Positions 5,258-63,355 of a DNA stretch of 64,000 bases are shown in pieces (the first letter of the stretch is position 1; each line of letters starts with the position of its first letter). Source of the stretch: Ascidiella aspersa (taxonomy: Eukaryota); NCBI GenBank assembly GCA_963924565.1, contig OZ004611.1, positions 30,380,001 to 30,444,000 on the forward strand, written 5' to 3'. Both the position numbers and the translations under genes were made by a program. The notes below the pieces were generated by a model, which was given only the letters and a program-made list of their open reading frames with translations, was not told the DNA's origin and ran no database searches.

Positions 5258-5972
5258 ATGGCGACATACAGGGAAGCTGGCTTTATTAACTCGGAGCCTA
5301 CGTTCGCTGAATGCTTTTTGCCGCCTGATTCAACAGCCGCAGCTGAAAAGGCCTACCTTCAAGTTTCCCCGGGTGCCTCCATTAATTCAGCGTCAAGCGC
5401 CTACGAGGGCAATAATACGACTAACGAAGAGCGTTTGGCTGAGTCGGTAGGAAGCAACCAGTCGCAGCACAGTGAGAAGTGCAGCCCGACCGCTGCGAGC
5501 AAAATCGGGATCTCGCGAGGCGCCAGCGGGAAAATCGACTTCGGATTGCCGCCGAGCTCGCTTAGCGGAGTTGGGCTTGCTGCGAATCGGCCGCAAGACG
5601 CGAAGTACTTCGCCGCGGTGCAAAGACGCCGGGATTTTGTGTCGCCGCGTCTTGCAGAAGAAGCAGAAATGCAAGCGGCCTACTATACCCAAGATGGGGG
5701 TGCTTATAGCGGTTACCCCGTGTTTTACCCCCAGCCAAGTTACCCCCCAAGCGATGCCTCTACGGATTTGGGGACTTACCCAGTGGGCCACATGGCGCCG
5801 TTTGGCCAATGTGGTCTTAGGAACCCCGGGGTACAGCACCCCTACCAGAATGGGGGCCAATTAATCCCGTACGGCCCCAAAGAAGGTGGATGTGGGGTTG
5901 ATGAAGGGGGTCAGGAATTTCCTTGGATGAGAGAAAAGAAAACGCTGGGCAAAAAGACATCGGAAGGAAGAA
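5258..5972 (+). CDS. Hox2: Hox2 coding exon 1 (N-terminal motif to hexapeptide)
   Basis: ATG at 5258 in gcagcaATGg context; ORF encodes GFINSEP and FPWMREKK; donor AA|gtaagt at 5972/5973, phase 1. Confidence 0.93.
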
Positions 5973-8900
5973 GTAAGTTATTTAATAGTTTTTTTATTTT
6001 TTTTGACCAAGTTTTTTAGATGTCGTCTTTGAGGTTTGTGAATTAACAACAATATAAGAAAATATTAACGAAAATGCTGCATTAAATCACTTCACATTCA
6101 AGGAAGACGTTTGCAATTTTTTAATTATATTTTTATTATCTTTAAACTGGCATTATGAAAAGCACGTATGCTATAGGATAAAAAGTGATACATGGATTGA
6201 TCTAAGCAAAGTAGTCATAAAGTTTGGAAAGATATTGTCTTTGAGGTTTGTGAATTAACAACAATATTAAAAATAATGACAAAAATGCAGCATTAGTTCA
6301 TTTTACATTCAAGGAAGAGAAATGTTTTTCCCTGTCGTTCGCAAATTTCAGTCGACCGTAACTTCGAATTTGCAAAATCTTTTCATGGAATCGAAAAAGT
6401 GTGTTGTGGCACAAATGACACAAATGCAGCATTATGGTTGATTTTACATTAAAGAAAATAGATTTTGTGCGGCTTCGTTTGCAAATTACTGTCGACAATA
6501 ACTCCTAATTAAACAACTTATTTTATGGACCTATTTATGTATTCCTTGATAAGGATTATTTTAACCATATGCAAGGCCAAGTGCTCCTGAAAATATATGC
6601 ATAAAATTTTAAATTTTAAAACTACGCTGATTTAGATTGTGGCGTAAAAAGGTATCTTACCAAAAGACTACGCTATTTAAAAAAAAAAGTTTAATACATT
6701 TCAGACATCCTTCCTTATACATCTTAATGTTTGCTTGCTTTTTGTTATTCTAGGACTTATTTTTTTTCTAACGTTTTACTTTTCAATTTAAATCTTTTTT
6801 TTTTCAATTTAGATAATTGAACTTTTTTAGGCTTAACTTTAACTTCTTTTGATGGTTTATAAAATAAAATGAATATTTATTCAGGACATGAAATCAATTC
6901 AGTCCTCCTATAATTTTGTATGGTTAGTGTATGATACTCATTCACGAAACTCATTTATTTAACACAACATGCAGAACCATTGACTTTAATCTCAAGTTTA
7001 GTAAAAACTTCGAACCTAGTAATACATCTGTAACTTTAAAACACTTTAGCGTCATATATTAAACAAAAAGCTGAACAAGTAAAGGCATCAGCCTTCAATA
7101 ACGCAAAGCCACATTCATTTATTGTTGTGTTCTGTATTCCGAGAAAATTCTGGCATTTACGATTTCACATTTGCATTCGAAATAGTCAATTTGTGAAGTT
7201 GGACACAAATCAACATAATATTATTGCCAAATTAAAAGCACAGGGCACCAAGGTTCGGTTGAGCTTGTCTGGCTTTTTTGCACGTTGTTAAACACACTTC
7301 CAGCAAGTGCCAACGACAAAAAGAGACTTTTAGGCACTGTTCCAAATTATTACGGCATCTTTTTGCCGTAAATAGGCTTTCCAAAAATGCAAACAACACG
7401 TAAGCGTTGCTAAACTATCCCATCAACCTTTCCTTAACTAGGTAGAGCTTTTTTGCCGTTTTTTTTTACTTGTTAAACAATGTATTAAAGTACACCTATT
7501 GAGGTATTCCAAACATTTATTGAGGTACACTATGCACGGATCTGTAATGTAGCTCTATATGACTGTAGTTTAGAAGAAAGCAATAATAACCAGATCTTTG
7601 ATGCTTTTATGTAGAGATTTCGATATAGGGTTCGCAAGAAACATATTTTGTGTTTTTATTGTAAGTTTTTCGCAGGATTTACCGAAAGCGGCATATTGAT
7701 AAATGTATTGTTGTGAGTTATTCCGCATAGGCGGGGAAAATACAATGATTTTGTTTTTTTGTGTGTGATTTTGGTAATATTGCCTAAAACAGGTGTTGTT
7801 ATATATTTGTTGTGAAATTTTGCAAGGGTTTACAATAACCGCCGTGCTTTCAATTTTTCAATTTATTTGTGATAAATTATCGCAGAAAAATTTCGAAGAT
7901 AAATGTTTTTCGATGATATTGTGGGTTTCTGTTGGTTTGCACACTTAAGCATATGTTTTGCTGTTTTACTATTCGGTATGGTTACATTATTAACACAGAC
8001 GAGTGATTAGCAGTTTTCACAAAGCAACTGATACATGAGGTGATCTAAGCAATATAGTTGTTCGGAAAGATGTTGTATTTGAGGTTCCGGATTAACAACA
8101 ATATAAAAAATGACGCGACGAATCTCCCATCGACAAAACAGAACGCACTTTAAATGTTATAGAGTCTCGATTCCTCTTCAGACGTCCAGACAGAGACGGG
8201 GCAGCCCGGAAAATTGTCGCTCGAAAATTTAATGCAAATCATGCTGTAATGAATGTCGGGTTTAGCGCAATACGACGCTAAAAAGGGCGGCTCCATTTAT
8301 TCTAGGCCCGGACTTTAGTGCTATTTTCGCATTTAAAACGACTTGATAAAAAGGACAACTATTTTTCGACAAAAACGGCTATAAGTTTGGCTATAGTTTT
8401 TACCACAATATTCCTAAAGCGTATTGTATTTAATAGCGTTAATAAGTATATAATTAAAAAAATCCCTTATGGCGTATGTCCACTTCTCAACCCATTGGCC
8501 GCGCTCAAAATTCTGTGGCCATTTAATTGGGTTGGGTCGCCGACTGCAGCAGTTTTACATAGTTAGAATTGTGCAAGATTGGTACTGCGCAAAATTCTTT
8601 CAAACTTTTAAAAAGCTCCGAGAGAAATACAAAGACATATATTATATTTGTTAAAATCGAATTTACTTATGGTATTTTTCACATGCTTTGTTTCCTTACA
8701 AAACGTTAGTGAATAGAATTGGGTCGTCAAAGCTTTGCTGCTATATTTAAGGTGAGTATTTAAAAAAATCATAAACATTGGTCTACTGCTATGCGATTTT
8801 TTTCCAGCCTACTCAGGCAAATTTTCAATTTTAACACTACATGAATAGTTTGCAGAAAATTGGGGCAAAATTCTGTTTATAAGTCCAAAAAATATGCCCG

Positions 8901-11900: not shown

Positions 11901-14900
11901 CCAGCAAATGTAGGCTACGCCCACTGTGCGTGGGCCATCTTGTCGTTGTTTTGGTTTGTTGCGTCACAGAAAGTAATAATCATCAAGACAATTGCGACAG
12001 TCAAAGTTTAGCTTTTTTAGACTTTTAAATTCTTTTTTTCGCCAAGTCGCTGTTGTGCAAAAAATCACAGCTTAGAGGAAAATTTTAGTCGCCGCGGCAA
12101 AAAGGTTGAGAAACACTGTCGTACAAGTTAGAAACTGGTCGGAAAACTCCCACACTGTCAGGAAGGTGAATTTATTGTGTTTTGAGCCCTCTAACCCGTC
12201 ACGGCTTGCCTTCTATGGTTGACGTACCTTTCTTGCCTTTGACGCTTTCACGCCTCGTATATCTCGCCCCTTCAGTTTTCGTTTCGGGCTACTAGAAAAG
12301 GGTTTCTCAACCACACACTTAGTTTGGGTTGGCGCTTGTTGTTTTCTGTCGCAGCAATTCACAACAAAGCTTTCGAAAAAACAACAAAACACCTTTTCAC
12401 CCTTTTGAATTGTTTGCTTGGCGCGATTGCATTACACGTCGATTTTAGCATATATGCTTTAATTGCCAACAAAGCAAATCATACTTGGGAGCATAATGGT
12501 TGGAGGTTGTAGTAAGACGTGATAAGAATATGAAAGCTCATACAGAAGTATAGGTATCATTTTGAACGTTTCGAATAACTCTTTATTTTTTTTGGCTTTG
12601 ATATTCTTATTAAATCATATTTAATAACACAATAACACGTGGCTTTCTTTGAACACTTTTCGTTCAAGATTGTTTTCAATGTTTATGGTTTCTGCTCCCT
12701 GGTAATTGTACGCAAAGACGCAAAGTCATTCTGTAAATTACGTTTTACAAATAAGACGGCATTGAACAAAATAAAAACTTAAGAAGATATTACATTGGTT
12801 TTATATTTTGTGCTATCTTATATTTTCTGCTGACGTCGTAATTGTGTACACGAAATTGGTTTGGAAATGATGTTTACACTCTCTGTATAAAAAACCACAG
12901 ATTTTTATTTAAGTTGGCTCTTGGTGTTTGCATGTTGGCAACCAATGAGACATTTTACTTGTAAAAAAGTGACTTTAAACTTCTAAACTCTTAAATATTT
13001 TATTATTCTGCTTGAAAGTGACAGTTGTTCACGTGACGCAAAAATGTTAACATATTTTTAGGTTCAGTTTTGTTTCACAGGGTTGTGGTTAACTTGCCTG
13101 TAAGTAAAATTATTTTATCCAACGATAAGTGGTAACAATTAGACAAACAATTGACCTTAATCTTCAAACAATATCCAACTGCAATTATTTTCCATTAGGT
13201 CTTGGTTTAGTCAGTTTCTCATCATTTTTCACAATATCAACAGGTCGCAAAAAACAAATAAACAGGTCGAAAAATATCACAGTTTGTCAAAATCGTAATC
13301 TGCATCAGTTAAGTTATACACTGTAAAACTGTAACAGTCACAGGTCGTTGAGCCTGTGTGACTCAGTTCGATCGCGCATTCCTTCAAATCATTGGCAGAC
13401 CAAGTGAGTTTACACAACTAAGACTGGACAGAAACAACGACGTTTATGGGAAATTGTGTAAGTGATACCGGGGCTCACAATTGGCGCTGGTGCAATTTAT
13501 TCACGCAATTACGGCACGTCAGCTGTGCGTTATAAGACGAGGGTTGGCAGCCGTTTTAGGGCGCAGGCCAAAAACCAAACGTAAATGTTAGAGGTTTAGT
13601 TTGTGTAATTCGTATAGTTTTTCCGTTTCTCACTAGCGCCAAAAGAAGGTCGTTTATACAGATTTAAGTAAGCAAAAACTTTATGCACGTTTCAACAAAA
13701 ATCAAAGGGGTGTTAGTAAACAACAAGAAATAACAAATAAATAGTCGAAAAAACGTTAACAAAACGGGGCCCCACTATTGCTTACAATTTTGGTGTCTAG
13801 TGATAAGGAGTTATTGTAGGAGTCTTTTTAAAAAGATTCAAGTCAGAATTCGGATAAGATCTCGCGAAAAACGACCGAATTCAACGTCTTTCATCTACGT
13901 TTTAATTTACTCCGATCACGACCATCGCCGAAACGGTTAAGTCACAAGAAAGAGGAACAAACATGTGTCGATTTTATCGAACACTGCTTTCGTACATTTC
14001 CAAACCGACTCAAAAACCTTCAGAAAGGCTTCCCCTGCAAGACAAGACCACATTGGTGCACTGCAGCACTTACCTATACACAGAGCAGCGGGCAAACGGT
14101 CTGTGTTTATTTATGCGAAATTTTCTCCGCTCCCTGTGTGTGCCCGTGTGCTGCCAGGTCGGCTACGATACTTTGAACCGTGAGTCGGCCCATCCATCAT
14201 TCGTCTGGCCGCCTGTCAGTCCTGTTGACTTGCGTCGCCGACACCTAGACGTTTTGACCCAACCTCTCGCCAGCGCGCTTTCCCGCTTCGTGTGAGAACC
14301 GCGACCTTTTTTGCTGTCGTAGGTCGCCGACAGCTGCCGAGCCGTTCGTTTAAAACAGGGGTTCTTACATTTTTTTTACCGTGGACCCCTAAAATTTATT
14401 TTTGCTTCGCGTGGACCACGGTAGGCCAGAAATTTTCAAAAATGACGTCATTAATTAACGTCACACAATACAAATAAACTTCACACAATACAAATAAAAT
14501 TTTATAAATCTGCTGAATTCGGTCCAAAAATATGAAGGTAAAATGGAGTCTAAGTACATTCAGTGCAAAATATTTTTGAAGTTTCGGTAAAAGTTATTTT
14601 TCACTGAAAACAGTCATGACTTAATTATTTTGACAGATAATCCGATATTTGTTTTGTGGCAGACAAACACATATACGTGTGTGTCTGTCTTTTTTGTAAC
14701 AAACTAATGGTGCTAAACTTCACACAAAACGTTTAATTTTTAATGTTTTAATTTCCTATTCTCACTCCGGTAAAAGTCCTCTCCGACTGAACATAGAGTA
14801 GTTTTTTTTTTGTACACCAAACTGACACTTTTGAACGTCAACGGGCGTCTCGTTTTTATGCAAAATTGACCTGCCTTACAGCTATATTTCTATACATATT

Positions 14901-17900: not shown

Positions 17901-20900
17901 TTAACCATTCAATTTTTCTTTTACCATCAAAAACAAACAAATGCAAGCAGGCTGTTTATCGCATATCATCAAATTAGTTAGAGAGGATTTAACCAAAAAG
18001 TTATTCGATTAAAACACTATGAATAAATTCACGTCAATTCCTTTAAAGACTATGGCGTATTGGCGTAATTCATATCCATTCATTTTAGGCAAAAAAAAAC
18101 TTATGTCGAGTGAAGCCAAAAATTAAAACACTATGACTAAATTCGCGCCAAAAACCAGTGGCTTAAGTACAATTTCAAAACAAATGCAACTATAGACACA
18201 TTGGAAGCTCAAGAGAGACTTGGGGCTGGGACCCATGGGGCAAACACGCTTGGGCGATCTCCTGTGACTATCACCCACATTCCTTACCCCGTGGACCCCC
18301 AAAACGGCACCGAAGCGAATTTTAACTTGGTGGTCGCGGAAACTCGATACTAACCCCGCACTGACCACTGCAGAGGCTATAGTGTTTGTCCAGCATTTGT
18401 GCTCACGGTGGTCTGTCGCATATCGGGTGGCCTCTTGGCCCCACTCTGGAGCCTTTTGTTGGGGCCAAACTCATTGCCCCCCACCCCCGGATTGCTGGGT
18501 AAATTTGATTAGGACCCCAGCTGCTGTTTTGGTTGACCCTGCAACTTAACCCCAAGCGCCCCAATTAAGATAAGGTCTACGAAGCTTTTGTGGCTCTCTG
18601 TCTTGTTTTGTTTGTTATTTTTGCGGGAATTCGGACTTTAGGAACATTTCGGTTCAGCCGGCAGTTTTTTTGACTGAAGTACTTGGTTTCCCGGTTTATT
18701 TTGGTCTCTTTTTGATGTTTGTCTTTCGTTGGTGGGTTTGATTTTTTACAGCGATTAAAGCAGTAAAATAAATGTCTAATGGTTTGCATAGAAACGCAAA
18801 AAGAAATGCCGCATAGACAATTTGAAACGTGCAATGAATGTTGAAGGCTCCAATTCTTTTAAGTTTTTCGAAAGAGCTACTAAAACAAAAATAGAGAAAA
18901 AAAGTTTAAAAATAGCACCAAATATTCCCGAAAGATCGCTGACAAATGTTATTCTATACGCTTAACTCTATAATTAAAATAAAGCGTTTGGTAAATTGAA
19001 CCTACCAATGTTATAAATCCAACGAAATCAGCATGTAAGGTTATAGCCCATGAGCCTTGGGGTTGACAAAACTATCAAACTCGGAAATCGCGTTTATTAA
19101 TAATTAATTAACCAAGCATCAGCTATTGGCAATGTGTAGGTGTAAAGTAAATGTTGCTTTAGGGCTGCGAAGTGGTGTGAATCGACAAACACGAGAACGT
19201 CGCTTTATAGGCACTAGAAACGCTACTGTGTGGGCTTGGCATACAATCGGGGCCGCTAGACTCTATCAATATTTGCCCAAGACGAGGCCAGATTAAGCTG
19301 ATGCCTTAAGCAAACTTTTGAAGGCTTGATGGGCATGTACATGGCATGGCTGGTCCTCTATCGGTTGTAGAGAGACAAGTTTAGTCGAAATTTAATTTTT
19401 AATTCACGGGGTAAGACAAAAACATGTTTTCGCTTTTGGTGGCTAACCGGCTGTACCTTTTATTGGCCGTCGAGAGAGAACTTGTCTTATCTTAATTTTT
19501 AATCCATGTTAATACGGACATACAATGTTTTCCTTTGTACGGTTTTGATGGTATCCCCCCCAAACACACACACTCCTACCCCACTTTGCGTTGATTTCCG
19601 ATATAAGTGACGATCGTGACGAATTGCTAGTGCTTGACGGATGATTGGCAGCAGTTTTACACCAAAATTTCTGCCAGCAATTTTGCTACTTGCAAGTTAC
19701 GAAGACGATAAACACTAGAAAATTAGTTTTTGAAAGTAATATTTTAATCTTTTAGATTTAGAATATCTATCTATTAATTTTCAACATCTTAAATTGTTAC
19801 TGTACTCCTATATGGGATTTGAACTTTCTATAGATGCGATTAACAAAACGACTTACTAGTAAAATAACAAAATGCAAAATCAACATTCAATAAGCGTCGA
19901 AGCGATCAATTTCTGTTCGAAACAGTGAATTTTCAGAATTATTCGCGACAAGCCGTGCGCGTCGTAATAAAAACAAGCAAACGAAGAATATTTTTTGCTT
20001 AATGGAGCATAATAGTTAGAGGTTGTAATAAGACTGGGTGAAAATATCAAAGCCCATACAGAAGTAGGTTTCATTTTAATAGTTTCAAATATATTTTATT
20101 TCACAGAAAAATTATTGAAACTGAAGTTTCAAATATCTTTTATTTCATAGAAAACTTATTGAAACTGAATAAAGAAATATTCGAAGAGTTCAAAATGATA
20201 CCTACTTCTGTATTGACTTAGTTATTCTTACTACGTGTTGCTGCGAAGGTTGGATTTTTAACAACGAAGGACGGCCACACCCCTTCATTAAGATAATTGT
20301 CTTTAAACAAGGGGCTACGGAGACAATTAAAAAAAAATCCGACTCCGGCCAATTGTGCGATGTAGCCGAGTCCTGAGATACTTTAAATGTAGTTTTAGAA
20401 AATATATTGTTTATCGTTTCCGTCAAAAAACATAGACTTTGCTTTCAGCAAGTAAACGGTACTAAAAATATCATTTCATCTAATGCACCAATTTCAGCCA
20501 GTAACTGACAATGTTCATTTCTATTCCCACAAACTTTCTGTAGCAAAGTAAGAGGTGCCAGCGTTCTTCGCACCTCATCGTCGTATCGCGTTACGTTGAA
20601 GTGTCAAGGTGTGGCCTGAATGGCCCCAGCAATAAACGTGTAACCCCGCGAAATCACCACAAACAGCAATTACCTTAATCAGTCGAGCCTCGCAAACACA
20701 AATGAAACTTATACCTTTCACCTCACACCAAGGTTTTTCCGCCTGTATATAGGGGTGGGCAATTATATTTGACAGCGGGCCAAAATAAAAACATAAAATG
20801 TCTTGGCGGGCCATGTCAAAAAAGGGTTTTCAAATACAAATAATACAACGTGTGATTTCCTTTAGAGGAATCTTTAAATACCGGTATTCTTGTTTTGACA

Positions 20901-23900
20901 AGCTGGTAAGAGTAGGTACGAACAGGTTGGGATGCCTTACAAGAGTAATATGATCCAATTACAAGAGTAATATGATTCAATTTAAGATATGACGATGCCT
21001 TTGGTAGCGAAATATATATTATAGTGCCTGACGTGAATTGCTAGCAGCTTGGTTAAAGTGTTTTGCTGTTCTTGATCAGAAAGTGACGTCGACATTTATC
21101 TTACAAGGGTCAAGGTGATTTCCAATATAACATATTCAATGCTGCATTCTTTCAATATGTGCTTTTGTACTCATGACGCCGTTTGCCTTTACTGTTAACT
21201 CTATGTGTCCTGTGCAAGTGCACCTGTAAGAAATTGCGCATCACCGTTGTATATAAAGGTGTGTTTTGTCTTGTTCGGTCGAGTTACCAAATAACGGCAC
21301 CTGTCATCACAAAAAAATTAAGGGAAAGCGGCAATTTTAAAACACAATTTCGCGTTTGTGCTGTACGACGTATGCTGGACGAAATTGTGTTTTACATAAA
21401 AACGTATACCGGATATCCAACCCGCAGTGGTTCTCAATTCTCATACAGTTGAAAGTTATATCTTAGGGTAGAATTTTTTTATTTTGAGGAGTAAACTTTT
21501 TCCACGTTGGAGTTGAGGAGGGAATAGTGGGATAACCTTTAAAATTACATAAAAATCTTCTTCGGGTGAGTTACGGTTGTTCTCAGAGTCTGTAAGATCC
21601 TTGTCTATTGTTATTTAAACAGCAGCTTATCTAGTCTAGAGATCATTGCTTTGCGACTTGCGTGTCATAAAACCTTGCTAGTTCTGCCGCAGGCAGTGTT
21701 GTTAACAAGTCATTTTGAAATGACTTAATTCCCAATCAAGTTTTTTTTAAATAACTTAAGTCAACGTCAAGTTATTTTAAATAAGTAACTAGTCAAGTCC
21801 CAGTCAAGTCATAATTTGAGCAAGTCAACTTCAAGTCATGTTCTTGGTTTAAAAATAAAACGTTAAACCATTGGAATAGTTAAACTACTGGAAATAATTC
21901 CTACTATTATGAGCAATAACTGAATTAAAAAATAAGAAAAACACAACATATAGCAAGCAAAATGTTTTACAAGCAAAAATTAGGATAAATATCTCAATTT
22001 TATAAATAAATGCTTAAGGAAAAGAAAACACTTCATTTCAACCCAAGTCATTTGCCCAAAAGACTTAAGTCAAGTCAAGTCATTTGAAAACAATAACTTA
22101 AGTGCACTTAAGTCAAGTCATTGACTTAAGTCATTACAACAATGGCCGCTTGTTTAACACATCATGTTATTGTTGCCCATTCCAATTCAGGAGTATTAAG
22201 TAGTTAAACGTTTGAGGAGGACCGTAAAGCATATAATTAAACACTTAGTTTGTTTTCAAAAACTCAGTATTGTGATCAAACTATCGCGCGCATGTTTTGT
22301 TTGTCGAAAAGGTTAACTTTGTTGACTGTTGCACCAGCGTCGTTAAACGTTGATTAGCTGTTTTTATTTGCTTTGTACCCCGCAGTTTGCAATATCAGTA
22401 AACAATACAAGTTGCAATACTTGTGTTTACTCTGGCAACACTTTACGTGTCAATTTATTTGCTAAATTGTATGTATTTAATTACAAAAACGTAAATAAAA
22501 CAATACGGCTTCAAAACAAACTATATTTGTTTCGACCCTAAATAGAAAAATAATACTTTTCCGCTTTAAAAAATTATAAAAAAGAGTCAGAACAAGTTTC
22601 ACAATATCGCCCAAATATACATTGTAAGTATAATTATTACTTGCGTTTTCCAGTGAGAAAGAAATATTGTATTGTTCTTTGACAAATTACATATATAACC
22701 AAGAGTATGGATTTTTGTTGTTCCAAAATAAGTCCATTTAAAAACAAAAAAAGTAGTTGTTTTAGAACTTTTGCCAAAGTAAATGATTTTAAGCAGTTAA
22801 CAGATTGATAAAGTATTACGTATTAATTGTGTTATGTTGAATTCCAGTTAAAATATTACTATAGCAAATGTGCGGGTGAACTAATGTTCAACCAGTTCAG
22901 ACCTATTCATATTATGACTGGCAGAATATTTCCTGTTAAACAGCGGACAACTATTATTAAAATAATTATCTGCATTAAACTGCCATTATGTAGTTAACCT
23001 TTACCATACCTAGTTATTGAAACGGTGAAATAGACAAAGGTTACCCGTGATTGCCCACACCTCTTTTACATACTGGGTATCAGGCCGAAAATACATTTTT
23101 TTCTCGCTTTGCGCCAATCTAATTTTGTGAAGGCTATTTCAGTTATTTCAATATATAATATGTTATTGTGGAGCATAATGGTTGGAGGTTGCAGTAAGAC
23201 GTAATTAGAATATCAAAGCCCATACTGAAGTAGGTTTCATTTTGAACGTTTCGAATAAATCTTCGTTCATTTTCAACATCTACCTACTTCTGTATGAGCT
23301 TTGATATTCTTATTACGTATTATGTTATTAATGTGTAATACCCTTTCCTTTTTGAATTATTCTTCTACCTTTTCAATGCGCAAAAACATTAGTTGTCATG
23401 AAGTCATACTGTTGAATAGAAATCAAAAATGACTTTTATTTTGGCCGCACGGGGTTTAAATGTTTTTTTTTTCGGTAATAGCATCTGCATTTTCTGTAAA
23501 GATGTAGCACATTCCGCAACACCACTGACAAGACAAATTTTAAAGTACCTTTAGTTGTAGATTCGCTACCTACAAAAAAATTAACTAGGTATTATTGTTG
23601 TCCAATCATCCTTGTTTTATATTAACGCACTGATTTTTGTTTGTCTAATCAAGTTGGTAGTTTTCAGGTATATTATATCGATCATTATTATTCGGGACTT
23701 ATTCATTTCAGGGTTATATCTACGTGGATACGAACGCTAGGTATAAAGTGTAATATTTTTTTAGATTTAATGCTGAGATTTATTTACGTCGTTGAACTCA
23801 AACAGATATTCATTTTGTAACAAATCGCCATGTGATATTGATTTTCAAACTCGCAAATTCCCGGGTTCGCGAGTTCAAGTCCCAGCTCAGCCGATTGAGT

Positions 23901-32900: not shown

Positions 32901-34908
32901 TTGGTTTTGGCCCGCGACTAGAAAAAGTTGCCGACCCTTGCACTAGACCATGCCCCCCAAACTTGTAGTCCAGTTTCACTGTTAAAATACATTATTTTTG
33001 GCACATAATGTCAACTTTAGTCCGTTTTACTTAATTAGTCTATTGAGCCCAACAGTGTTATCATTCTATAGCTTCTTTCATCGTGTGAAATTACAGTTTG
33101 ACTATAAATGCCGTTATTTCGAGCAATATTCGAATCTAATTTACAAATTTCAGTTAAAATAGATTTAAACCCGTATGCGTTTAATTGAAGTTTTGCCAAT
33201 TTAAAACAAAAAACGCAATTTTCAAGTTCGCTCGAGGAACACGAAACTTGGACATTTTCAAAAACTTAACTATATATTTTCGCCCACACTGGCACACAAG
33301 GAAAAGAACAACAGAAATTAAGGACTTTTTTCAATCCAAACTATAGATTGCACCTTGTAGTTATAGGCTTAAATTTACACCAACACAGACGATCAGACAT
33401 CCAAGGATAAACAACAACAAACATTAAGGAATTTTTTTTAATCCTAACCATATATTTTTACCTATACTAGGCAAGTCAAAGTCTGGTTCCAAAACCGACG
33501 CATGAAGCACAAACGTCAGCAGCAGCAGACACAGAAGGACGGTGGCGACAAGGGCGACAAAAGCGACGACGCCGACAGCGCCGATTCGAGCGACGAAAAG
33601 GACGGAGAAGCCAAGGCTAAAGCCGGAAGCGACAGCGAAGCGGAGAAAAACGAAAATGGCGATTCGCCTCAAATTACGGCGCCACAATCTGCGGGAAATG
33701 AAGCTTCTTCATCCCGCGAGTTTGACGATAACCGGTCGAACACTACAAGTACAGCTGCTGCTGGTAACGATGTAAACTCACCAGGCGACTGTAAAAACGA
33801 TGATGAGCCTGATAGTAAGCGCAGTAAGCTCTCAAGTTGCGTGGGACATTCTCACGGCATTTTCCCGCAATCGGAGCCAATCGAAACCGTCCAGGAAGCT
33901 TCATTTCCAGCCGCAAACTTAAAGCGAAAGCTGAGTAGTGACCCGCGGGAAACGGCTCAGCAACCAAGCGCCAATGTAGCACAAACGCTCAACAATGAAG
34001 CTTGCTACGACCCCATTCCAAACCACAAGGCACTGGTTTCTGTTAAGGAGGAAAATACAACGTTACCAGCACTTGTACAGACCTACGAAGGCCAAGGCTA
34101 CAGCTACCAGCACCCTCAACACCAGCACCAGCAGGAAAAGACTGGTTATGAGGCTCGGGCTGTGTCGACTGCAACTGTACAGTACAGCGATGTACAGAAC
34201 CAGCAGCAACAGCACTACCAGCATCAGCAGCAGGCTAAGAGCAACTCCTGGCGGGATGCGTACACCTCCGCACCCACGGAGTACGCGGCTTGTGATCCTC
34301 GCTACCAAGACGCTCCAAAAACAACGCCCGGCGCCGAAGGACATGCCTACGCACCCGGGAACCGCTACCTTCAGTACCAGGGCGCCTGTAATCGCCGTGC
34401 GTCAGTCGCTTCAATGCATGAACGCTACGACTACACCCAACAGCATCTGCAAAGGCAAGCAAGCAGGCGAATGTCCGAAACATCTTACCCGAGCAAAAGC
34501 CTTGACTGGCAGGCTGGAAAAAGCGGCGCCCAGTACCGTAGCTCGCTACAGCTGGTGGCGGACAGCAGTGGCACGACCAAGTCCTCTTATCCAAGCGGAC
34601 GCGTGTTCACCCCGTACGATACGTCGTACAGTGACATGCGAGCACAGGGCGTCTACGGGAGTGACTACTTTGATTCCAGCTACACCAAACCAACGGGGAC
34701 GTCCGCTGGCGACATTAATGGTAAAGCTTACTTCAGAGCGGTTGCAAATCGTTGCGATTACAGCCCATCTGCGGGAAATGCGAGCTCCTATCCCGGCCGA
34801 CACTTCAGCCCGGCTCAGTTTGAGATCCACGCGCGGACAGTCACCCACGTGGACATTGCACAGACCGCTGGGTTGCTAGGCAATGCGCAGCGCGTCCTCG
34901 ACATGTAA
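5258..34908 (+). CDS. Hox2: Hox paralogy group 2 homeodomain transcription factor (Hox2/proboscipedia-like), join(5258..5972,29744..29891,33471..34908), 766 aa
   Basis: N-terminal [20 protein letters not shown] resembles the Hox2 GFINSQPSLAECL motif; hexapeptide FPWMREKK; spliced homeodomain [43 protein letters not shown]|[16 protein letters not shown] is diagnostic for PG2. GT-AG sites are phase-compatible (phase 1, then phase 2) and total 2301 nt. Micro-exons in intron 1 cannot be excluded. Confidence 0.93.
11414..11562. mobile_element. Short MITE with apparent 6-bp TSD
   Basis: CAGTGTTTT...AAAACCCTG termini flanked by tatatc on both sides; internal gcggtc repeats. Confidence 0.55.
11619..12118. 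mobile_element. hAT-type MITE (older)
   Basis: CATTGTTTCCCAACC...GGTTGAGAAACACTG; degenerate TSD (5/8). Confidence 0.65.
12488..12612. mobile_element. Family B repeat copy
   Basis: ggagcataatggttggaggttgtagtaagacg...gaacgtttcgaataactc followed by a short inverted arm. Confidence 0.65.
14190..14218 (-). promoter_or_regulatory. Candidate Pbx/Hox + Meis/Prep enhancer module in intron 1
   Basis: Minus strand TGATGGATGG(G) at 14190-14199 and TGACAG at 14213-14218, inside a GC-rich, apparently non-repetitive island (~13920-14345). Confidence 0.5.
14356..14570 (+). mobile_element. hAT-type element end (CAGGGGTTCTT), partial
   Basis: Homologous in reverse orientation to ~57660-57853; further related sequence at ~30960-31140. 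Confidence 0.6.
15442..15831. mobile_element. hAT-type MITE
   Basis: CAGTGATCGGCAAAC...GTTTGCCGACCACTG; TSD gtctaagc/atttaagc. Confidence 0.75.
16790..18220 (+). repeat. Two local duplications (~300-bp tandem pair; ~120-bp pair at 17704 and 18088)
   Basis: tacaaatacaaccag(g/t)gtggtaataatttaaga occurs twice; aagccaaaaattaaaacactatgactaaattcgcgccaaaaaccagtggct occurs twice. Confidence 0.75.
20003..20235. mobile_element. Family B repeat copy, inverted pair
   Basis: Same head as 49395; the inverted arm contains gatacctacttctgtat. Confidence 0.65.
21694..22144. mobile_element. MITE with AAGTC subterminal repeats
   Basis: CAGTGTTGT...ACAACAATG termini, flanks gccgcagg/gccgcttg; second copy in opposite orientation at 63659-63998. 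Confidence 0.75.
23169..23318. mobile_element. Family B repeat copy, inverted pair
   Basis: Near-identical to 49395-49579; retains TTGAAAA...GAAACGTTC on the minus strand at ~23244-23279. Confidence 0.7.
23855..24030 (+). mobile_element. Possible tRNA-derived SINE fragment
   Basis: B-box-like GAGTTCAAGTCC followed by a GC-richer body; no A box seen. Other isolated B-box fragments at ~15365-15420 (-) and ~35420-35630 (+). Confidence 0.35.
25856..26900 (+). repeat. ~185-bp tandem duplication decaying into a ~33-bp degenerate minisatellite
   Basis: tccat(g/a)aatgactggcagctc at 25856 and 26043; tatgacatatg x3; then repeated aagtcatttgc-aaatacctta-like units. Confidence 0.7.
28415..28740. mobile_element. 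Family A repeat, degenerate copies in inverted arrangement
   Basis: Two ggt(a/g)cactatacacggatctataat heads (28415, 28508) plus diverged arms in both orientations. Smaller fragments occur at 7524-7554, ~42530 and 45507-45600. Confidence 0.55.
29744..29891 (+). CDS. Hox2: Hox2 coding exon 2 (homeodomain residues 1-43)
   Basis: Acceptor ttcttgcag|GA at 29743/29744; encodes [49 protein letters not shown]; donor AG|gtattt at 29891/29892. Missing from the ORF track because it has no start codon. Confidence 0.93.
30331..31340. mobile_element. Cluster of family A repeats in Hox2 intron 2 (tandem and inverted copies)
   Basis: About five tatgcacggatctg heads with ttgattaagacgtt arms, and a fold-back at 31160-31340. 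Confidence 0.7.
32611..32940. mobile_element. hAT-type MITE in intron 2
   Basis: CAGGGGTGG...CCGACCCTTG termini, ggcccgcg subterminal motifs, TSD cactaggc/cactagac. Confidence 0.8.
33471..34908 (+). CDS. Hox2: Hox2 coding exon 3 (helix 3 and long C-terminal region)
   Basis: Branch-point-like cctaac at 33443-33448; acceptor ctatactag|G; encodes [16 protein letters not shown] in frame with the 33502..34908 ORF; stop TAA at 34906-34908. Confidence 0.95.
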
Positions 34909-38065: not shown

Positions 38066-38569
38066 CAGTGTTTCTCAACCTTTTTTAGTGGTGACCCTAA
38101 TATTAACAGAATACTGTGGCTATTCAATTAATTATCTTCGCTGAACCTTTTTTTTTAAATTGATGCTTGAATTAAACAATGAAACCTGAACACACACATG
38201 TGTGTTTACTGACCGGAGGGCCGGAGGTCGTGAGTTCGAACCTCACTGCAGGCTAGTTGTTTTTCTAGTCTGCTCTGCTTGCATCAATGATGTACAGATT
38301 CGGTGAAGAGTCTACAATGGCTTTCGGTATTGAATTGAACAAAGAAGAAATTAAATTGAAAACAAAAGAAACGGCATTATTAAAGTCAATGCTATTAAAT
38401 ATGGATCATATCGTTGTTTTGCTTCAGCAATTTTCTTAAATTTTGAAAAAACCCTTGCTGAGAACCAATTTCAATAAATCTAACTATATAAAACTACTTA
38501 AGTCGGTGACCCAACCAAATTAAACGTCCACCAAATTTTGGGTCGCAACCAATTGGTTGAGAAACAATG
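38066..38569. mobile_element. hAT-type MITE with a nested insertion
   Basis: CAGTGTTTCTCAACC...GGTTGAGAAACAATG; TSD gtatacac/gtacaaac. Confidence 0.75.
38178..38330 (+). mobile_element. Truncated, rearranged copy of the tRNA-like element nested in a hAT MITE
   Basis: ccggaggtcgtgagttcgaacctcactgcaggctagttgtttttctag... matches the reverse complement of 46777-46884. Confidence 0.7.
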
Positions 38570-42556: not shown

Positions 42557-42833
42557 TTTAATGGTGAAAATAACGGCCCAAATAGACGTAAGAAGCGACA
42601 TGCTTTATTATTCAAACGTTTCGGCAAATGCTCATGCCATCATCAGTGATATGAAGGCCACATCAGCAGTTACACCCGTTTATATACACTTTAGTCGCAT
42701 AAAGGAATGATAAAAAGGTGCGCAACAAGCGTCGCAAAAACGATAGATGATGGCATGAGCAATTGCCGAAACGTTTGAACAATAAAGCATGTCGCTTTTT
42801 ACGTCCATTTAAGCCCTTATTTTCACCATTAAA
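42557..42833. mobile_element. Fold-back element C2 with ~88-bp inverted arms
   Basis: 42557-42644 and 42746-42833 are near-perfect reverse complements; aaataaagagttcc occurs at both 42511 and 42831. Confidence 0.7.
42609..42651 (-). ncRNA. Minimal hammerhead ribozyme motif (fold-back element C2)
   Basis: Minus strand taTCA-CTGATGA-T-GGCA(tgagcatt)TGCC-GAAA-CGTT-TGAata. Confidence 0.6.
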
Positions 42834-45262: not shown

Positions 45263-46675
45263 ACAAGCATCATGCAACAAGGGCAAACAATCTTTAATAA
45301 GTCTGTTCACGTTTATGTGACCTTCTCACTTATCAAATTGCTTAAGCTACAGAATTGTGTTTTCCAACGTCCAATTTTGTAAATCCTGAGAGATATTTTT
45401 GTTGCTTATACCGCACGATTGTTAAGATAAACTTATATAATTGACCTGAAGAATATCATTATTTTCTAATCTGTTAAAGGACAATCTTACAACCATACTT
45501 TAACGTAGGTTCACTATGAACGGATATGTCATGTGGCTTGACAATGAATGTCAAAGCGTACCAAAACTTCTTTTGTAAGATGATGTCAATTTACTCGGCC
45601 AAAATATGTTAAACTATAGTTTTAGTTGTCCAATCTGCCTGGAAAAATAAAGTTAATTTGAAATTGTTGGCATTTTGCGATCTAGTTCCAGTTGTCTCGC
45701 AGAGTTAGGGGACCTTTTCTGATGACAATGCTTTTTTTTTTTATTAAACCAAACTCAGCGGGCAAAAAATTTTCGGTGTTTAAAAGCACCATTAAAAGGA
45801 AAATACTTTGACCAATGTTCAGTCATGAAAAGGTAAGGCGTAATGTTTACTGCAGCTAATTATTTAGGTTAGGTACGGGTTAGCGTTTGGGCTGGGGGGA
45901 TCAAGTAATATGATATTTATTCTCCTAGGTTAATAAATGACTAAAACATACATAATAATATTTTTGACTGCTTTAGCTGCATTGGGCATTACGTCATACC
46001 TTAACCTGCCTTGGACATAACATTTGGTCATAGTATTCTGATTGTGACCTAATCCAAAGTAGAACGCGAACAAAGGTTGGTCTAACAATAGAGGTGTCGA
46101 CTGTTTTGTTTGCTAGCCTGTTGGTAGCTCAAAACCCCAATTAGAAATGTCACCGGCTATTTATAGCAGGGGCTGTACGGCCAAATTGTCACGTCACAGA
46201 AGGCGGTATTGTATGTCACCTTGAAAACCTTTGCAGGTTATTTTGTCCTTTCGAACATTGCGGAATCCAACCTTGTGTTTCAGTCAGCCTTTAAGCTTTG
46301 TTAAATTTTACTTAACTTATTGAGGGTTCGACTAACCGTTAGGTAAAAAGTCTACGTTTGGAGCACCAAGAAAACAGTGACATTACTGAAACGTTTTCAT
46401 GGCATGTTTTAAACAGTTAACTAATCAATAATAGTGTTTTTCTTTAACATATATAATTTGTTTTTATCTTTTTTATTGGTTTGTGTTTAACGAAAATCAT
46501 ATCAATCACTATGTTTTTTTGCGACGATAACTTTAAATGCACTTCGGGGATAATATTAGTAATATGTTTGCAAGCATTTTAATATTGCAATTGATATTAC
46601 CTGCGAAGCGAATCCCTGTGCGACGCCCTTGTAAAATTGCGCGTCGTGAAGCACACTTTAAGACTCTCTGAGTAA

Positions 46676-47124
46676 AATGAAAGACACACACAAACATATG
46701 TGTTTAATAACATTTGTGATCTAGCCCCTCGGAAGTTGCTTTATGACCAACGATTACGGCTTCCGTATCAATAGTACACCGAAAAGCCATCGCAGACTCG
46801 CCGAATCTGTCGATCTTTGATGCAAGCAGAGCAAGCCAGAAAAACAACTGGCCTGCAGTGAGGTTCGAACTCACGACCTCCGGTAAAGCCGGGACCGTCG
46901 CTCTACCAACTGAGCTATGCAGGCTCAGAGAGGAGCGAGTCGAGAAACAACCATGCGCCAATACTTGCACATTTTTGTTAGTACAAGCAACTTCACACTG
47001 GGGGATCATCAGTCCGTATCAATCAATGAAAGACACACACAAACATATGTGTTTAATAACTTCTGTGATCTAGCCCCTCGGAAGTTGCTTTATGACCAAC
47101 GATTACGGCTTCCGTATCAATAGT
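46676..47124 (-). mobile_element. Non-autonomous element with 100-bp terminal direct repeats and an internal tRNA-like gene
   Basis: 46676-46775 and 47025-47124 differ at 2 positions; tgagtaaaa flanks both ends (46669-46677, 47124-47132); related fragment at 38178-38330. Confidence 0.75.
46850..46924 (-). pseudogene. tRNA-like Pol III gene with non-canonical anticodon arm (T-arm resembles elongator tRNA-Met)
   Basis: GCCTGCA/TGCAGGC acceptor stem, A box TAGCTCAGTTGG, GCTC/GAGC D stem, GTGAG-TTCGAAC-CTCAC T arm and a TTTTT terminator 5 nt downstream; the anticodon region is 2 nt too long with no canonical 7-nt loop. Confidence 0.7.
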
Positions 47125-49394
47125 GAGTAAAACTTATGGTTTTACAGTCACTTACGAAAACCATATTAATCTTCATTTGCATAAGTCCTGGTTTAAAAGT
47201 AGACTTTGCGGAGCATGGTGTTTATTAACCACAAACAACCGATACAAATTATTTTTAAAACTACGACCTTTAAACATTAAATACACAGGATTAATGTATG
47301 CTTGCTACTCGACTTTTGGCCAGGTACTTAAGACGACAATGTACTAAACTAAGCTTACTGTTGTAAGTCAGGCGAGCTTGTGTGTACAGAGATCAAAAAA
47401 CAACATGCGGCTAGGTAGCCATAAGCACAACGGCCAATAACAAAAACAATAATCAAAAACCAGATGAGATCAGCCGGATGTATTTTTCTGATCAACGACG
47501 TCATAATACTTTGTCTTTGAACCACGGGGTTTAGAATTTTGCCACCAAAAAGCAGCATATTTCCCGAAGCCATAAACACTCGACATAAATTGTTTGTAAA
47601 ACAATGATTTTTTTAAGATTATTAGCATCGAGCTTTTTATGTTGCTGTTCTACTTTCAGTCTATGTAATATGTAAGACGACAATTTACCTAACTAATTTG
47701 TGGTCTTACATACCTGACTGAAAGTAGAAAAAAATCTTGCTGTGTTTAGTCAGGTAAGCCTGAGATCAAAAAGCCGTATGCCACTCCAGACCATAGGTAC
47801 AACAGCCACCAACAAAAATAATTAATTAGACAAAAACCGACACCAGATCAGCCCGTGTAATGTTTCGGATCAACGAATATACTATTTTCTCTTTGAACCA
47901 AGGCGTTTAGAATTTTACTTATTTCATTGGTATTTACAAAAAAACAGGTTAATACCATAATACGGGGAAGACTAAGTTACCGAAGTGTCACTCATCTTCT
48001 GAAAATTGCTGCTGGTCGGGTTTTCATCTTTTTTCCAACACGTGAAATATACAATTTAAACAAAACGAAATCATGAAGCCACGGACTGCCTATAGATGTA
48101 CAGCAGTCATAATAAACAATAATAAAAAAAATAAACACATTACGAGATCCGATCGACCATGTAAGCCTATTTATTGTCAGAAGATTGTCGTTAAATCCAC
48201 AATAAAACACAAAATCCCTTTGATTAAACGACGTCTGTATATAGCAATTTCGTTCTCAAAAGTAGGTAGCATTTTGAATGTTTCGTATATCTTTTAATTG
48301 ATGCCGTCTATATATAGTGATTTGGCAGCCGGTTTAGGCAGGTGGCCAATCATCTTCGGTAAACAGCAATTAACAATTGTGTTTGACGAAGAAGGGCCAC
48401 GGTTTACCCAAAGGCCCTGAAATCGATTTTCTCTTTTCTTTGATGCTCGTAAGATTTTACGCCAACATATTAAATGTCCATTGTCGAGGTTATGTTAGCA
48501 ACACAAGGCTAAACAAGGTTCGCAACAGGGTAAAACAGGTTCACTTTTAAACTTTGCTTCAAATTATTACAGCAGCTAAATCAAAACTTGTCAGTAACCT
48601 ATACATTGTTTCCTATAGTGTCCTGATTTTTTTGGGTTGGTGCTGGTTATATTTAAAGCTCTATTTTTTAAAACCTCCATTTTTTAACCTATAGCACAGC
48701 CTTTCTTAACCTGGAGTTAATTTATGTTCAGGACAGAAAAAATGTGCAAGCTGTAGGTATTCGAAGCCTAATTTCCTTGTTCAGATTTAATTAATTCGAA
48801 GTTATAGCCTCATAGCCTATAGATTCTTTATCGTCTAGTGTCGGTAACGTTATGCTTCGCGAATCGGTACTTTTTAGTTTATTGGCAAGTCTAAAGACTC
48901 CAGAAGTTGTTAATACGAACTTTCCTTCAGAAGCCAACTTTGTAGTCGGAGTACGGTATCGTACGGAAAGGCAAGACAGGGCATGATATTTACAAAGATT
49001 TTTGTTTTAACTCAAGTTATTGATTTACATCAATGACTACAGCGGAATATGAACTAACAGTTGAGGCATTATTATTTCCACGAATATATTAAGCAAGTTT
49101 GTGACCATTTTATAAATTACATTAAAATGTTTAAAAATATCAGATCACGGGTAACATTGGACCCAATTTGTTTGTTATTCAAGTTTGGCATTAACCCATT
49201 AAAATAAATGTGCTAATTCAAAACATTGTAACTTTGTACAGTTAAAATAGTGTATATCATGATTAACTACTAAAGGTTTACAATGGGTATTTTAAGTTTA
49301 ATATGGGACAAAAAAATCGCCCAAAATTTGTTTTAAAGCAAACACTGTTAATTTAGGAAACATAATTTGCATAAGTGTTGTGTAAACTGAACTT

Positions 49395-49579
49395 TGGAGC
49401 ATAATGGTTGGAGGTTGTAGCAAGACGTAATAAGAATATCAAAGCCCATACTGAAGTATAGGTATCATTTTGAACGTTTCGAATAACTCTTTATTCATTT
49501 TCAACATAAATGTAAATAGTTATTCGAAACGTTCAAAATGATACCTACTTTTGTATGGGCATTGATATTCTTATTACGT
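49395..49579. mobile_element. Family B fold-back repeat (hammerhead-like, Penelope-like non-autonomous element)
   Basis: tggagcataatggttggaggttgtag...gaacgtttcgaataac arm followed by its reverse complement. Confidence 0.7.
49467..49510 (-). ncRNA. Hammerhead-like motif with U3/A8 core (repeat family B)
   Basis: Minus strand atg-TTGAAAA-T-GAATAA(agag)TTATTC-GAAA-CGTT-caaaat; 6-bp stem II, weak stem I. Confidence 0.45.
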
Positions 49580-50389: not shown

Positions 50390-50710
50390 AAAACGTAGTA
50401 CGAATTTCAAAGCCCATACAGAAGTTAGGTAGCATTTCAAAGGTTTCGAATAAATATTAAGATAATGGATGGCGGAGTTTGCAGTTAGACGTAGAATGAG
50501 TATCAAAGCCCATACAGGAGTAAGTAGAATTTTGAAAATTTAGAATAAATATTAACATAATGACTGTAGCTTGTAGTTAGATGTAAAATAAGGATCAAAG
50601 CCTATACACGAGCGGGTATACCATTTTAAACGTTTAAAATGCTCCCTACTTCTGTATGGGCTTTGATATTTTTACTACGTCTTACTACAACCTCCAACCA
50701 TTATGCTCCA
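50390..50710. mobile_element. Family B array: three tandem partial arms plus one inverted arm
   Basis: tcaaagcccataca repeated about every 95 bp, then ctacttctgtatgggctttgat...ccaaccattatgctcca. Further degenerate copies at 58282-58378, 61437-61575 and 62755-62980. Confidence 0.65.
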
Positions 50711-51285
50711 ATATTCATAAAACATTACTCTGGTTGCGACGACCCAAATACTAAAGCTTAAATATAACATGAAGCTTTGGCGACCCAGTTCTCGTCAGTG
50801 ATTTTTTTATTAAATGGAAAAAACATAAGACAAGCATAAATAACTTCCAATTGAGTTAATATGAGGCATGTGTTCGTATTTCTCCATAAGCCTTCTCAAA
50901 TTTTAGAGACATTTTATTATGCACCAATCTTAATAAATCTAACAATATAAATCAAAATCGCTAGTTGAAAAAGGAACAAATAGAACTACTAAACACAATT
51001 GTAAATAATTCGTTTTTGTTAAGTTAAAGTGGTCGAAAATGGTGTTTTGTTAAGGTTTGAAGATAATGCTGTGCTATAAGGGTCAAAAATAGCATTTTCA
51101 AATGGTCGAAATGGTAGTTTGTGCAAACAATAAAAAATAGTAAAAGTTTTTCGTGTTCAAATAAATGTTTTTGTCGTTTAAACAAACCTAAATTGTGATT
51201 TTATAAGGCTTGTAACTATTGTTTTGCAAAAAAGAGCCTTAAATCGTGTTTTACAAATTGGAATTTTCAAAAATTGACCTTTTAT

Positions 51286-61211: not shown

Positions 61212-63355
61212 CTATACACTATACATGCAAGCCTTGAGGCAGGTATGGCGCTAAGGTCAAGTCAGGGGCGGGGCGATCGCGAATGACTTCACCTTAGCCC
61301 AAGGACCAGGGAAGTCATCATCGTACTGTCATCGCGTGACTCGGACTTATAATGTTACTACAACGCCCGGCCGATCATTTGTTGTTGCAAGCTCGGCGTA
61401 TAGGCAAGGGCAATCATTTCAGTCCTTGCTTGTAAATATGGTTAGAGGTTGTAGTTAGACGTAGTAAGGATATCAAATCCCATGCAGAAGTAGATATACA
61501 CTATGTTGAAAATATATATAAGAAAGAGATACTCGAAACCTTCAACGTGCTACTTAGTTCTGTATAGCCTTTGATAGATTTAGGGTTTTGAATGCATTGC
61601 GGGCTTTCAGATTATAACAGGGCCTTCAAGATTCAAGAAAGGATCATGCTAAATGAATTCCGGACTATATAGAAGATGAAGTGCCTTGGAACTAAAACTT
61701 TTCCAAAAACATTTACGAATAGATTAAAGGATTTTGGAATAGATCAATAGTGCTTACTCAGGAGAGAATAATCAAGTTATAAAGAAAGGGTAATAACTTA
61801 AGGCTTCTCTGACTAAACAATCAGATTTTAAAATCAAAACGAGCCCCTATTTAAAGTTTAGCTGCTTTTGAAGTATTTGTGTCTGCAGTTAAATGGATGG
61901 CCTTTTTAAACAGAATTGTTGTGCTTAAAAAGAATTCAGTGTTTCGAGAAAGCTCACTACAAAAACTGAAACAGTTTAGTGCCCGGAACACATTTTAAAA
62001 ATAATCCAGAAACTCTGTGAGACATATTTGAATCATAATGGCTAAAGATTAGAGTGGACGTACAATGAATCACTGAGCGATTAAATTTCGTATAAACAAA
62101 TTCGAAACATTCGCAAAACTTCTGTATGGGATCTGGTATTTATTCTACGTAATGACAAACATGTATATTTCCCTTCGTTTAGCAAATGCTGAGGTTTTAT
62201 GGCTGTAAAGAGTGTCACTGCAGACTCAGAACTTGCGCCAACGCGTACACGCAAACGCTTTAGCACCGGAACAAAGTTTTCAGTGTTTGACAGCTCTGAA
62301 TAATTCATTACGTAAACCAGACGTCGGTTTCTTCGCGGGTTGTGCGTGATTATCCTCGAGTAAGATTTTGAACCCCGGAGACCCAAACCCCGGAGCAACT
62401 TAAAGTTGTTGTTTTTACGGGAGCGCGTTTTGAGTTCCAGATGTGTAGTTGTTTTAGCAGCGGAGACAGGTCAAATTATTACTTGGAACTTGTTTGTGTG
62501 ACATTAAACAACTTCGAATTTTGCCGCTGCTGACGATAATGATAATTTTAACGACTATTATAACAAACTCTAACTATACCCTTGTTTTCGTTTAAGTAAA
62601 AAAATGCCACCTATAACTATATCATTACAGATTAGCATTGCTGTCGTTTTCTTAAGGCAGATAAAAATATTAAATACCTTTAATACGAATTACTAATTTT
62701 AAACACAATGGAGCTGGTTAAATATAGTTTTTTATTTTTTAAGAAAAATGACAAGTTGTAGTTAGAGGTAGAAAGTTTGTATAGAAGCTCGTAGCATTTT
62801 GAACGTTTCAAATAAATCTTAAGATAATTGCTTGAGGTTGTAGTTAGACTTAGAATGAATATCAAAGCCCATTCGAAAGTAGGTATAATTTTGTAAACGT
62901 TTCTAATAAGCCTTAAGCTAATGGTTCAAGGTTGTATAGTTAGACCTACAATAAACACCAAAGCCCATGGAAAAGTAGAAAATTTTTGTACGTATTGTAA
63001 AAGGGGCTTGGGCTAAAAGGGGCTTGCCCAAATGAACTACGTCACTGGGGATGCTAAACTTGTTATTGCTTGTGTGGTATTGTGGGTAACATCGCAATCT
63101 AGTGTCGAAACAGCAGCATGTGCTTTGTAACAATATCACCTCATTTAACCCCTTTTGATAAATTTTGAGAAACTTGATACTACTTTATATACTTATATAA
63201 TTTTTAGTTAGCCACTGTGAACGATAATCGAAATCTAAACGAATATTATGACAAACTTCAAATTGTTTTCTGATACATAAAGAATTGTAGCAATATTTGT
63301 AAATGGCGGTATTTCCTTGTGTTTTTACACGATTTTTACTGTCTTCATTTCTACT

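Follow-up and report, generated by a model that had tools for sequence, protein, structure and literature searches.

Penelope-like elements (PLEs) are described in the accessible text of PMC8557442 as forming partial tandems, non-autonomous multimers and inverted 5' copies and as having a tail at just one of their ends. The accessible part of PMC11167929 adds that the purified protein of an anole PLE cleaves AT-rich DNA on both strands in vitro and that PLE reverse transcription starts at two sites within the RNA, the stretch between these sites forming the genomic "tail." The window analyzed here, a stretch of 64,000 nucleotides of the Ascidiella aspersa genome (GenBank assembly GCA_963924565.1, contig OZ004611.1, positions 30,380,001 to 30,444,000 of the forward strand), contains at positions 46669 to 47132 a small element with 100-bp direct repeats around an internal tRNA-like module. 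This element is classified as a non-autonomous, tRNA-bearing PLE in which no ribozyme was found, and not as a terminal-repeat retrotransposon in miniature (TRIM) or a DIRS-like element. With a probability of roughly 80%, it represents 1.29 units likely copied by the reverse transcriptase (RT) and GIY-YIG endonuclease of a PLE, probably of the group called P2 below.

Non-autonomous PLEs, namely, MRC1 and other non-autonomous Chlamys elements (PMC8557442, accessible text), resemble the element in their pseudo-long terminal repeat (pseudo-LTR) partial tandems, head-to-tail multicopies and inverted 5' copies, as well as in having a tail at one end and a likeness to the autonomous partner near the 3' end. 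The element differs from them by its tRNA-like module with a following T-run, its 100-nt tail, its animal host and a probable partner with a C-terminal endonuclease, and the accessible text of that paper mentions no tRNA-bearing non-autonomous PLE. Animal non-LTR retrozymes (PMC7229834 and bioRxiv 10.64898/2026.07.22.740005, both in their accessible parts) share tandem units of 150 to 450 bp and long target duplications, and PLE mobilization with rolling-circle copying has been proposed for them, as it is for the element here. The element lives like an animal retrozyme but fails the test that defines these elements, a type I hammerhead in each unit, since none was found in it. The word "tRNA" does not occur in the main text of the bioRxiv paper.

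The schistosome Sm-alpha and Sj-alpha repeats (PMC6765202, accessible text) likewise carry a Pol III (RNA polymerase III) promoter inside a tandem unit, and at least two units are needed for them to propagate. They release monomers by a hammerhead, whereas in the element no hammerhead was found and the tRNA is followed by a T-run. Helenus, Ajax and Cassandra (TRIMp3; PMC10886601, and also the meeting report PMC12859917, both accessible in part) are small and non-autonomous, too, with a small-RNA-gene module and direct repeats. Their RNA gene lies inside true LTRs, accompanied by a primer-binding site, a purine tract and 4- to 5-bp duplications, none of which holds for the element. The tRNA intronic circles of PMC6614914 and the circularly permuted tRNA genes of PMC3978253, as far as their accessible text goes, concern host tRNA genes and not mobile elements, and the splicing motif predicted here differs in forming only between neighboring units. 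A literature search, which covered few subscription papers, retrieved neither a tRNA-bearing, ribozyme-free PLE parasite, although the family may already be catalogued, nor a mobile element circularized by tRNA splicing.

A repeating unit with a tRNA-like module

The window copy consists of 1.29 copies of a noncoding unit of 349 bp, as follows from the spacing of 346 to 350 bp between many matches in the genome. Its features, and those of a second copy in the same window, are the following:

46669..46677, no strand: target-site duplication, left copy (9 bp, overlapping element end A by 2 bases)
46676..46775, minus strand: 3' copy of the 100-bp repeat, a PLE-type tail (repeat alignment and locus mapping)
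46676, minus strand: fixed point A, an RT start and the 3' end of the insertion in the RNA sense (locus mapping)
46776..46839, minus strand: stretch from the T-run to fixed point B (colinear with the stretch before P2 end 1)
46776/46775, minus strand: unit junction, point B (locus mapping)
46840..46844, minus strand: T5 run, putative Pol III terminator
46850..46924, minus strand: tRNA-like module whose A and B boxes and acceptor, D and T arms are intact (ARAGORN, Rfam and family alignment)
46889..46892, minus strand: palindromic CCGG in the anticodon loop, the proposed central helix of an inter-unit bulge-helix-bulge (from the sequence)
46925..46956, minus strand: box of moderate conservation that lies upstream of the tRNA (identity of 0.855 among diverged copies)
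46985..47090, minus strand: long hairpin with point A (47025) in its loop (folding; layout shared with subfamily 2 and the autonomous P2)
47025..47124, minus strand: 5' copy of the 100-bp repeat, with the insertion 5' end at point B (47123-47124; repeat alignment)
47124..47132, no strand: target-site duplication, right copy (from the sequence)
38178..38329, no strand: second copy, of an older subfamily, in which an inverted A end meets an arm that ends at B

Most of what the first-pass annotation, made from the letters alone, had seen at this locus was recovered. The direct repeats are identical at 98 of 100 positions, and the flanking duplication tgagtaaaa is present on both sides and overlaps the element ends by 1 to 2 bases. 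The 11-mer tccgtatcaat does occur three times. The internal inverted match is real, 46985-46994 being perfectly complementary to both 47081-47090 and 46732-46741, and it belongs to the long hairpin, which is more stable than expected from 200 shuffled sequences (z = −4.5). ARAGORN and Rfam both place a tRNA of 75 nt at 46850-46924 on the minus strand (Rfam, 54 bits, E = 1.3e-10). The TTTTT that was said to follow this tRNA immediately actually starts 5 nt downstream. The second copy is flanked by an 11-bp duplication with one mismatch (38167-38177 and 38330-38340). No empty-site allele of the main copy was seen; contigs of two runs, perhaps the source of the assembly, cross the flank into the element.

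The unit belongs to an abundant family. The search covered the genome of 308.6 Mb in 75 contigs and gave 2,831 candidates; among the 40 that were scored there were at least 138 matches, mostly 97 to 99% identical and many spaced by 346 to 350 bp. Exact patterns for the tRNA module with its two loop types count 1,063 and 214 occurrences. Fifty-nine loci were mapped. Forty came from the unit search and 19, mostly on one contig (C1), were found with a 76-bp piece as the query; of the 20 loci examined in this second set, L226 was dropped as a duplicate of L225. The 40 were chosen by full-length ranking, which favors copies with a 5' end at B. Units are 348 to 351 bp long and also form head-to-tail arrays, with 0.2 to 12.2 units per locus, so that partial and full tandem insertions give rise to pseudo-LTRs. 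The 100-bp direct repeats are not LTRs but the overlap of a partial tandem. Older subfamilies of about 80% identity, including the second window copy, end at the same points as the young units. In four of their loci (L229, L230, L232 and L266), the tRNA module with about 62 nt upstream, including the box at 46925..46956, has been amplified as sub-repeats of 138 to 142 bp, with at least 10 of them in L266; a T4 run follows each sub-repeat. A search for relatives elsewhere gave 0 matches in metagenome contigs.

The tRNA-like module is well preserved. Over diverged copies, its A and B boxes show 0.97 and 0.95 identity. The T-run has 5 or more T in 108 of 128 modules, 4 in 14 and 3 in 6. A unit of subfamily 1 and a unit of subfamily 2 agree at 86 of 87 positions in the tRNA and T-run and at 74 to 80% elsewhere, which could reflect selection or recent exchange of the module. 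Acceptor pair 6 is C-G in 104 modules, U-A in 13 and U-G in 11 of the same 128, while pair 7 is A-U in 104, G-C in 13 and G-U in 8; these counts refer to related copies, not to independent events. Since both pairs lie outside the promoter boxes, they indicate that the fold of the RNA matters. The fold is maintained by compensatory changes, and the T-run is conserved.

The anticodon arm had been called aberrant, and this applies to the whole family: the arm has a 5-bp stem and a 7-nt loop, with C at the U33 position and one extra base before the stem, to which the young subfamilies add a pyrimidine at position 37 and a further base following the stem. The most serious defect of the window copy, a mismatch in the anticodon stem, is private: at base 46885 it differs from 141 of 143 aligned units, which have the pairing base there. 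Given this loop and the established rules for tRNAs, the module is not a translating tRNA. Its most likely role is to provide a Pol III promoter together with a fold handled by the host tRNA enzymes.

Insertion ends and a probable Penelope-like partner

Read on the minus strand, the insertions stop at fixed points on the 3' side and at varying points on the 5' side. The 85 arms of the 59 loci start at A in 54 cases and at B in 29 (together 83, with L055 assigned to point A by hand), and the two exceptions come from a single locus. A and B are the two ends of the 100-bp repeat, 100 nt apart. Inverted loci (26 of 59) contain 25 A-to-B joins and no A-A or B-B join. Of the 26 inverted loci, 24 have target duplications of 12 to 15 bp (13 bp in 14 loci), and 18 of the 33 non-inverted loci have duplications of 7 to 14 bp; overall, they are 7 to 15 bp long in 43 loci and 5 bp in 2, and none was found in 14. 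All of these lengths count 1 to 3 bases that overlap the element.

The same pattern is displayed by autonomous PLEs of this genome. A search for GIY-YIG domains gave 211 candidates, of which 150 were scored, and a second PLE search gave 169, of which 131 were scored. The 150 scored GIY-YIG candidates include at least two young autonomous PLE families, P1 and P2; both families have two 3' ends and carry a minimal hammerhead core. P1 (L102-L113), which we take to be Neptune-like, has a 36-nt tail, and its inverted copies pair end 1 with end 2 in 7 of 7 cases, with duplications mostly of 12 bp. P2 (L115-L125, at G000:C2:30.63 Mb and elsewhere) is a 3,422-bp unit with RVT_1 and GIY-YIG domains, and in all 15 inverted rows (14 distinct loci) end 1 is joined to end 2, with duplications mostly of 13 to 14 bp. 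Its tail region has 422 candidates in the genome, and the 81-nt tail overlaps the likely start of the open reading frame. Tandem P2 copies have a frame break between the RT and the endonuclease, and the frame of L123 is intact throughout. The cysteine linker of P2 is of the type that the accessible text of PMC8557442 gives to Neptune and Nematis. Additional P2-related families occupy L136-L158.

P2 or a close relative is the probable partner of the element. A profile built from 35 element tails ranks the P2 tail first among 20 PLE loci (99.8 kb), with an E value of 0.045 and the next match at 1.8, and in pairwise comparison subfamily 2 exceeds 498 of 500 shuffles. Subfamilies 1 and 2 and P2 all have the long hairpin with an identical 3-nt bulge and with the distal end in the loop. 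In a colinear alignment, the end of the tRNA module lies 74 nt, and the predicted hammerhead cut of P2 68 nt, before the proximal end, so that the tRNA module would appear to occupy roughly the place that the hammerhead ribozyme has in P2. As candidate partners, P1 and the other P2-related families gave no profile match below an E value of 1.8 and no blastn match.

Several observations weigh against this attribution. The window's own subfamily is not significantly similar to P2 in pairwise comparison, with 148 of 500 shuffles reaching its score, and the hairpin of P2 does not exceed its shuffles in stability (z = 0.38). The tail of the element is 100 nt long, compared with 30 to 40 nt in the PLEs of PMC8557442 and PMC11167929 (accessible text) and about 81 nt in P2. 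Moreover, since the scored loci are 150 of 211 and 131 of 169 PLE candidates, the genome may contain a closer partner.

If the element is handled as the anole PLE is in vitro, its long hairpin would be bound by the PLE protein, AT-rich DNA would be nicked on both strands about 13 bp apart, and reverse transcription would begin inside the RNA, at point A or B. A single primed strand would produce a truncated or tandem copy, and two primed strands would produce an inverted one. The 100-bp "direct repeat" would then be the A-to-B tail, doubled when the enzyme runs one full unit beyond it. At L059, an 11-nt inverted B end is situated between the target duplication and the 5' end, an arrangement that may represent a minimal product of two-strand priming.

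The RNA template and alternative explanations

The template is probably a repeating RNA, which is more likely to be a circle than a linear multimer. A one-unit circle copied round and round has, in our estimate, about an even chance of being this template, and a linear multimer beginning at B is a more tentative candidate. Pairs of units are identical in 143 of 195 comparisons within a locus and in 154 of 1,081 between loci, with differences of 0.24% and 0.79%, respectively. In several arrays, one variant occurs in every unit that covers the site (private in L049, L050 and L055, and in L065 present also in the inverted arm), which is what rolling-circle copying predicts. Read-through by Pol III of a dozen T5 runs seems implausible, and long arrays would therefore need either a circular template or a multimer not made by Pol III. 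Five of the 29 B-primed arms end at B, their length being a multiple of the unit; if the template is a circle, a second enzyme positioned at B would explain arms that stop there after whole turns.

Other data are less favorable to a circle: L052, L063, L068 and L204 are mosaics of differing unit variants, arrays could have been homogenized after insertion, and an RNA starting at B accounts for the 5' ends more simply. Such ends at B are found in 25 of 85 arms, against 4.4 expected, and in the less biased set of loci they are also present in 4 of 19 forward arms. Of the 85 5' ends, 7 fall at the 3' end of the tRNA or at the T-run (P = 0.027, uncorrected over six bins), an excess that possibly reflects T-rich microhomology.

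How a circle might be made without a hammerhead is addressed by an unlikely but specific proposal, in which the tRNA-splicing enzymes replace the ribozyme by way of a bulge-helix-bulge between units. Pol III would start at one tRNA module, pass one T-run and terminate at the next; the two modules would exchange anticodon stems, and their palindromic CCGG loops would pair into a strict bulge-helix-bulge. TSEN would cut both loops at 37/38, RtcB would circularize precisely one unit, and the resulting circle would serve the Penelope RT as a rolling template. The loop of the family consists of CCGG and three further bases, which read CUU in young subfamilies and UAU in older ones, and paired palindromes would give a 3-nt bulge, a 4-bp helix and a 3-nt bulge, which the accessible text of PMC3978253 gives as the strict tRNA-splicing motif. 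Fly pre-tRNAs with a C-G proximal pair and 6-nt spacing, as in the proposed dimer, are described in the accessible part of PMC6614914. With the D and T arms held, the stem-swapped dimer is predicted to be 6.4 kcal/mol lower in energy. The chance of a palindrome at this loop register is 1 in 16. CCGG is conserved at 0.83 over diverged copies, below the stem (0.88 to 0.91) and above the next three bases (0.67).

Against this proposal, the motif has a probability of 0 in an unconstrained fold of the subfamily 1 dimer. The ruler of the enzyme may be shifted by the additional bases beside the stem, one preceding it in every form and one following it in young subfamilies (PMC10485636, accessible text), fully paired helices are spliced less well in flies (PMC6614914, accessible text), and RNases P and Z could cut such a circle. 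No covariation of the palindrome was found: in 22 modules the two middle bases have both changed, but only about 3 of 16 independent cases remain palindromic, which is no enrichment, and one array contains both palindromic and non-palindromic loops. Recombination breakpoints in 143 modules did not single out the loop. The proposed loop cut coincides with 1 of 85 5' ends, against 3.2 expected, a result that is neutral because a circle predicts no excess.

A true retrozyme would instead have a self-cleaving RNA of unrecognized type that cuts at B, with the monomers circularized there and the circles copied by a PLE. This is improbable, even though B is both a 3' end and the most common 5' end, 118 internal B junctions have an identical continuation, and the size and tandem habit are like those of animal retrozymes (PMC7229834, accessible text). 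P2 shows no comparable pile-up at its equivalent end 1, with 0 of 29 ends within 10 nt after it and 2 within 15 nt before it. However, no Rfam ribozyme was found in two subfamilies at E values up to 1 or 5. A type III hammerhead fold with an altered core can be drawn in the internal part for the window's subfamily; its core word, the sole hammerhead-like one, is changed in subfamily 2 and is paired within the long hairpin, the region being a conserved plain hairpin. Furthermore, B aligns with P2 end 1, 68 nt from the predicted P2 hammerhead cut, so that priming at B needs no cleavage.

An ordinary tRNA-derived short interspersed nuclear element (SINE), driven by a long interspersed nuclear element (LINE) and with a direct repeat due to local tandem duplication, is largely refuted and very improbable. 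The A and B boxes are intact, the target duplications vary in length, and a few copies have one extra 4-nt repeat at end A. Some LINE tails add short repeats. In a SINE, however, the tRNA would not be internal and followed by a conserved T-run, and copies would begin at the tRNA 5' end. The tRNA start is the end of just 3 of 85 arms, against 3.7 expected by chance, and the tRNA module is thus not the 5' end of the copied RNA. The two alternative fixed 3' ends and the obligatory A-B inversions, as in the PLEs of this genome, point the same way, and the earlier view that the element is not an ordinary SINE is borne out.

The first-pass annotation had also proposed a young, non-autonomous retroelement of pseudo-LTR, TRIM or DIRS-like type. 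Youth, lack of autonomy and the pseudo-LTR option stand, whereas a TRIM of the Helenus or Cassandra type, or a DIRS-like element, with 100-bp LTRs is refuted. It had in its favor the near-identical repeats that frame the window copy and the tRNA-like sequence and tandem arrays of Helenus (PMC10886601, accessible text). The tRNA, however, lies between the repeats and not inside them; no TG...CA ends, primer-binding site or purine tract were seen by eye at the repeat borders on either strand; the duplications are 7 to 15 bp long instead of a fixed 4 to 5 bp; and most copies are truncated or inverted. To our knowledge, DIRS elements make no target duplication. A repeat of satellite or Helitron type that spreads as DNA with no RNA step, suggested by the homogeneous tandem arrays and a higher-order duplication in array L068, is refuted, unless the duplications are artifactual, by dispersed insertions with target duplications, by one-sided truncation and by compensatory changes in the acceptor stem and hairpin, which imply selection on RNA folding.

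Neighboring features and significance

Two long open frames on the plus strand (5189-6019 and 33448-34908) look like exons of one Hox-type gene, which we take to be Hox2/proboscipedia-like. The first has a hexapeptide-like motif near its end, and the second starts with the end of a homeodomain (Pfam PF00046, E = 2.7e-5). The tRNA-bearing element is located about 12 kb downstream of this gene. The window also contains an element resembling a miniature inverted-repeat transposable element at 42557-42833, with 88-bp terminal inverted arms that are 92% complementary, and at least six pieces of a palindromic repeat family (49425-49579 and near 12483-12593, 20003-20103, 23169-23279, 50628-50717 and 62791-62968). 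Elsewhere in the assembly, locus L101 (G000:C11:2088-5303) has intron-free frames with a GIY-YIG match on a small contig that may be bacterial; its frames presumably resemble bacterial UvrC and Rho.

The element provides a small, abundant and very young PLE substrate that has both RT start sites and a putative binding hairpin, and its candidate partner resides in the same genome. Together, these make it a compact test system for internal priming and for tandem and inverted insertion by PLEs, which the accessible text of PMC8557442 and PMC11167929 calls unresolved. It suggests that the retrozyme way of life can be led without a ribozyme. If the splicing proposal were true, the source copies would be only the arrays with at least two tRNA modules, the window copy would be a dead end, and the family would be a mobile element that makes its own replication intermediate by tRNA splicing.

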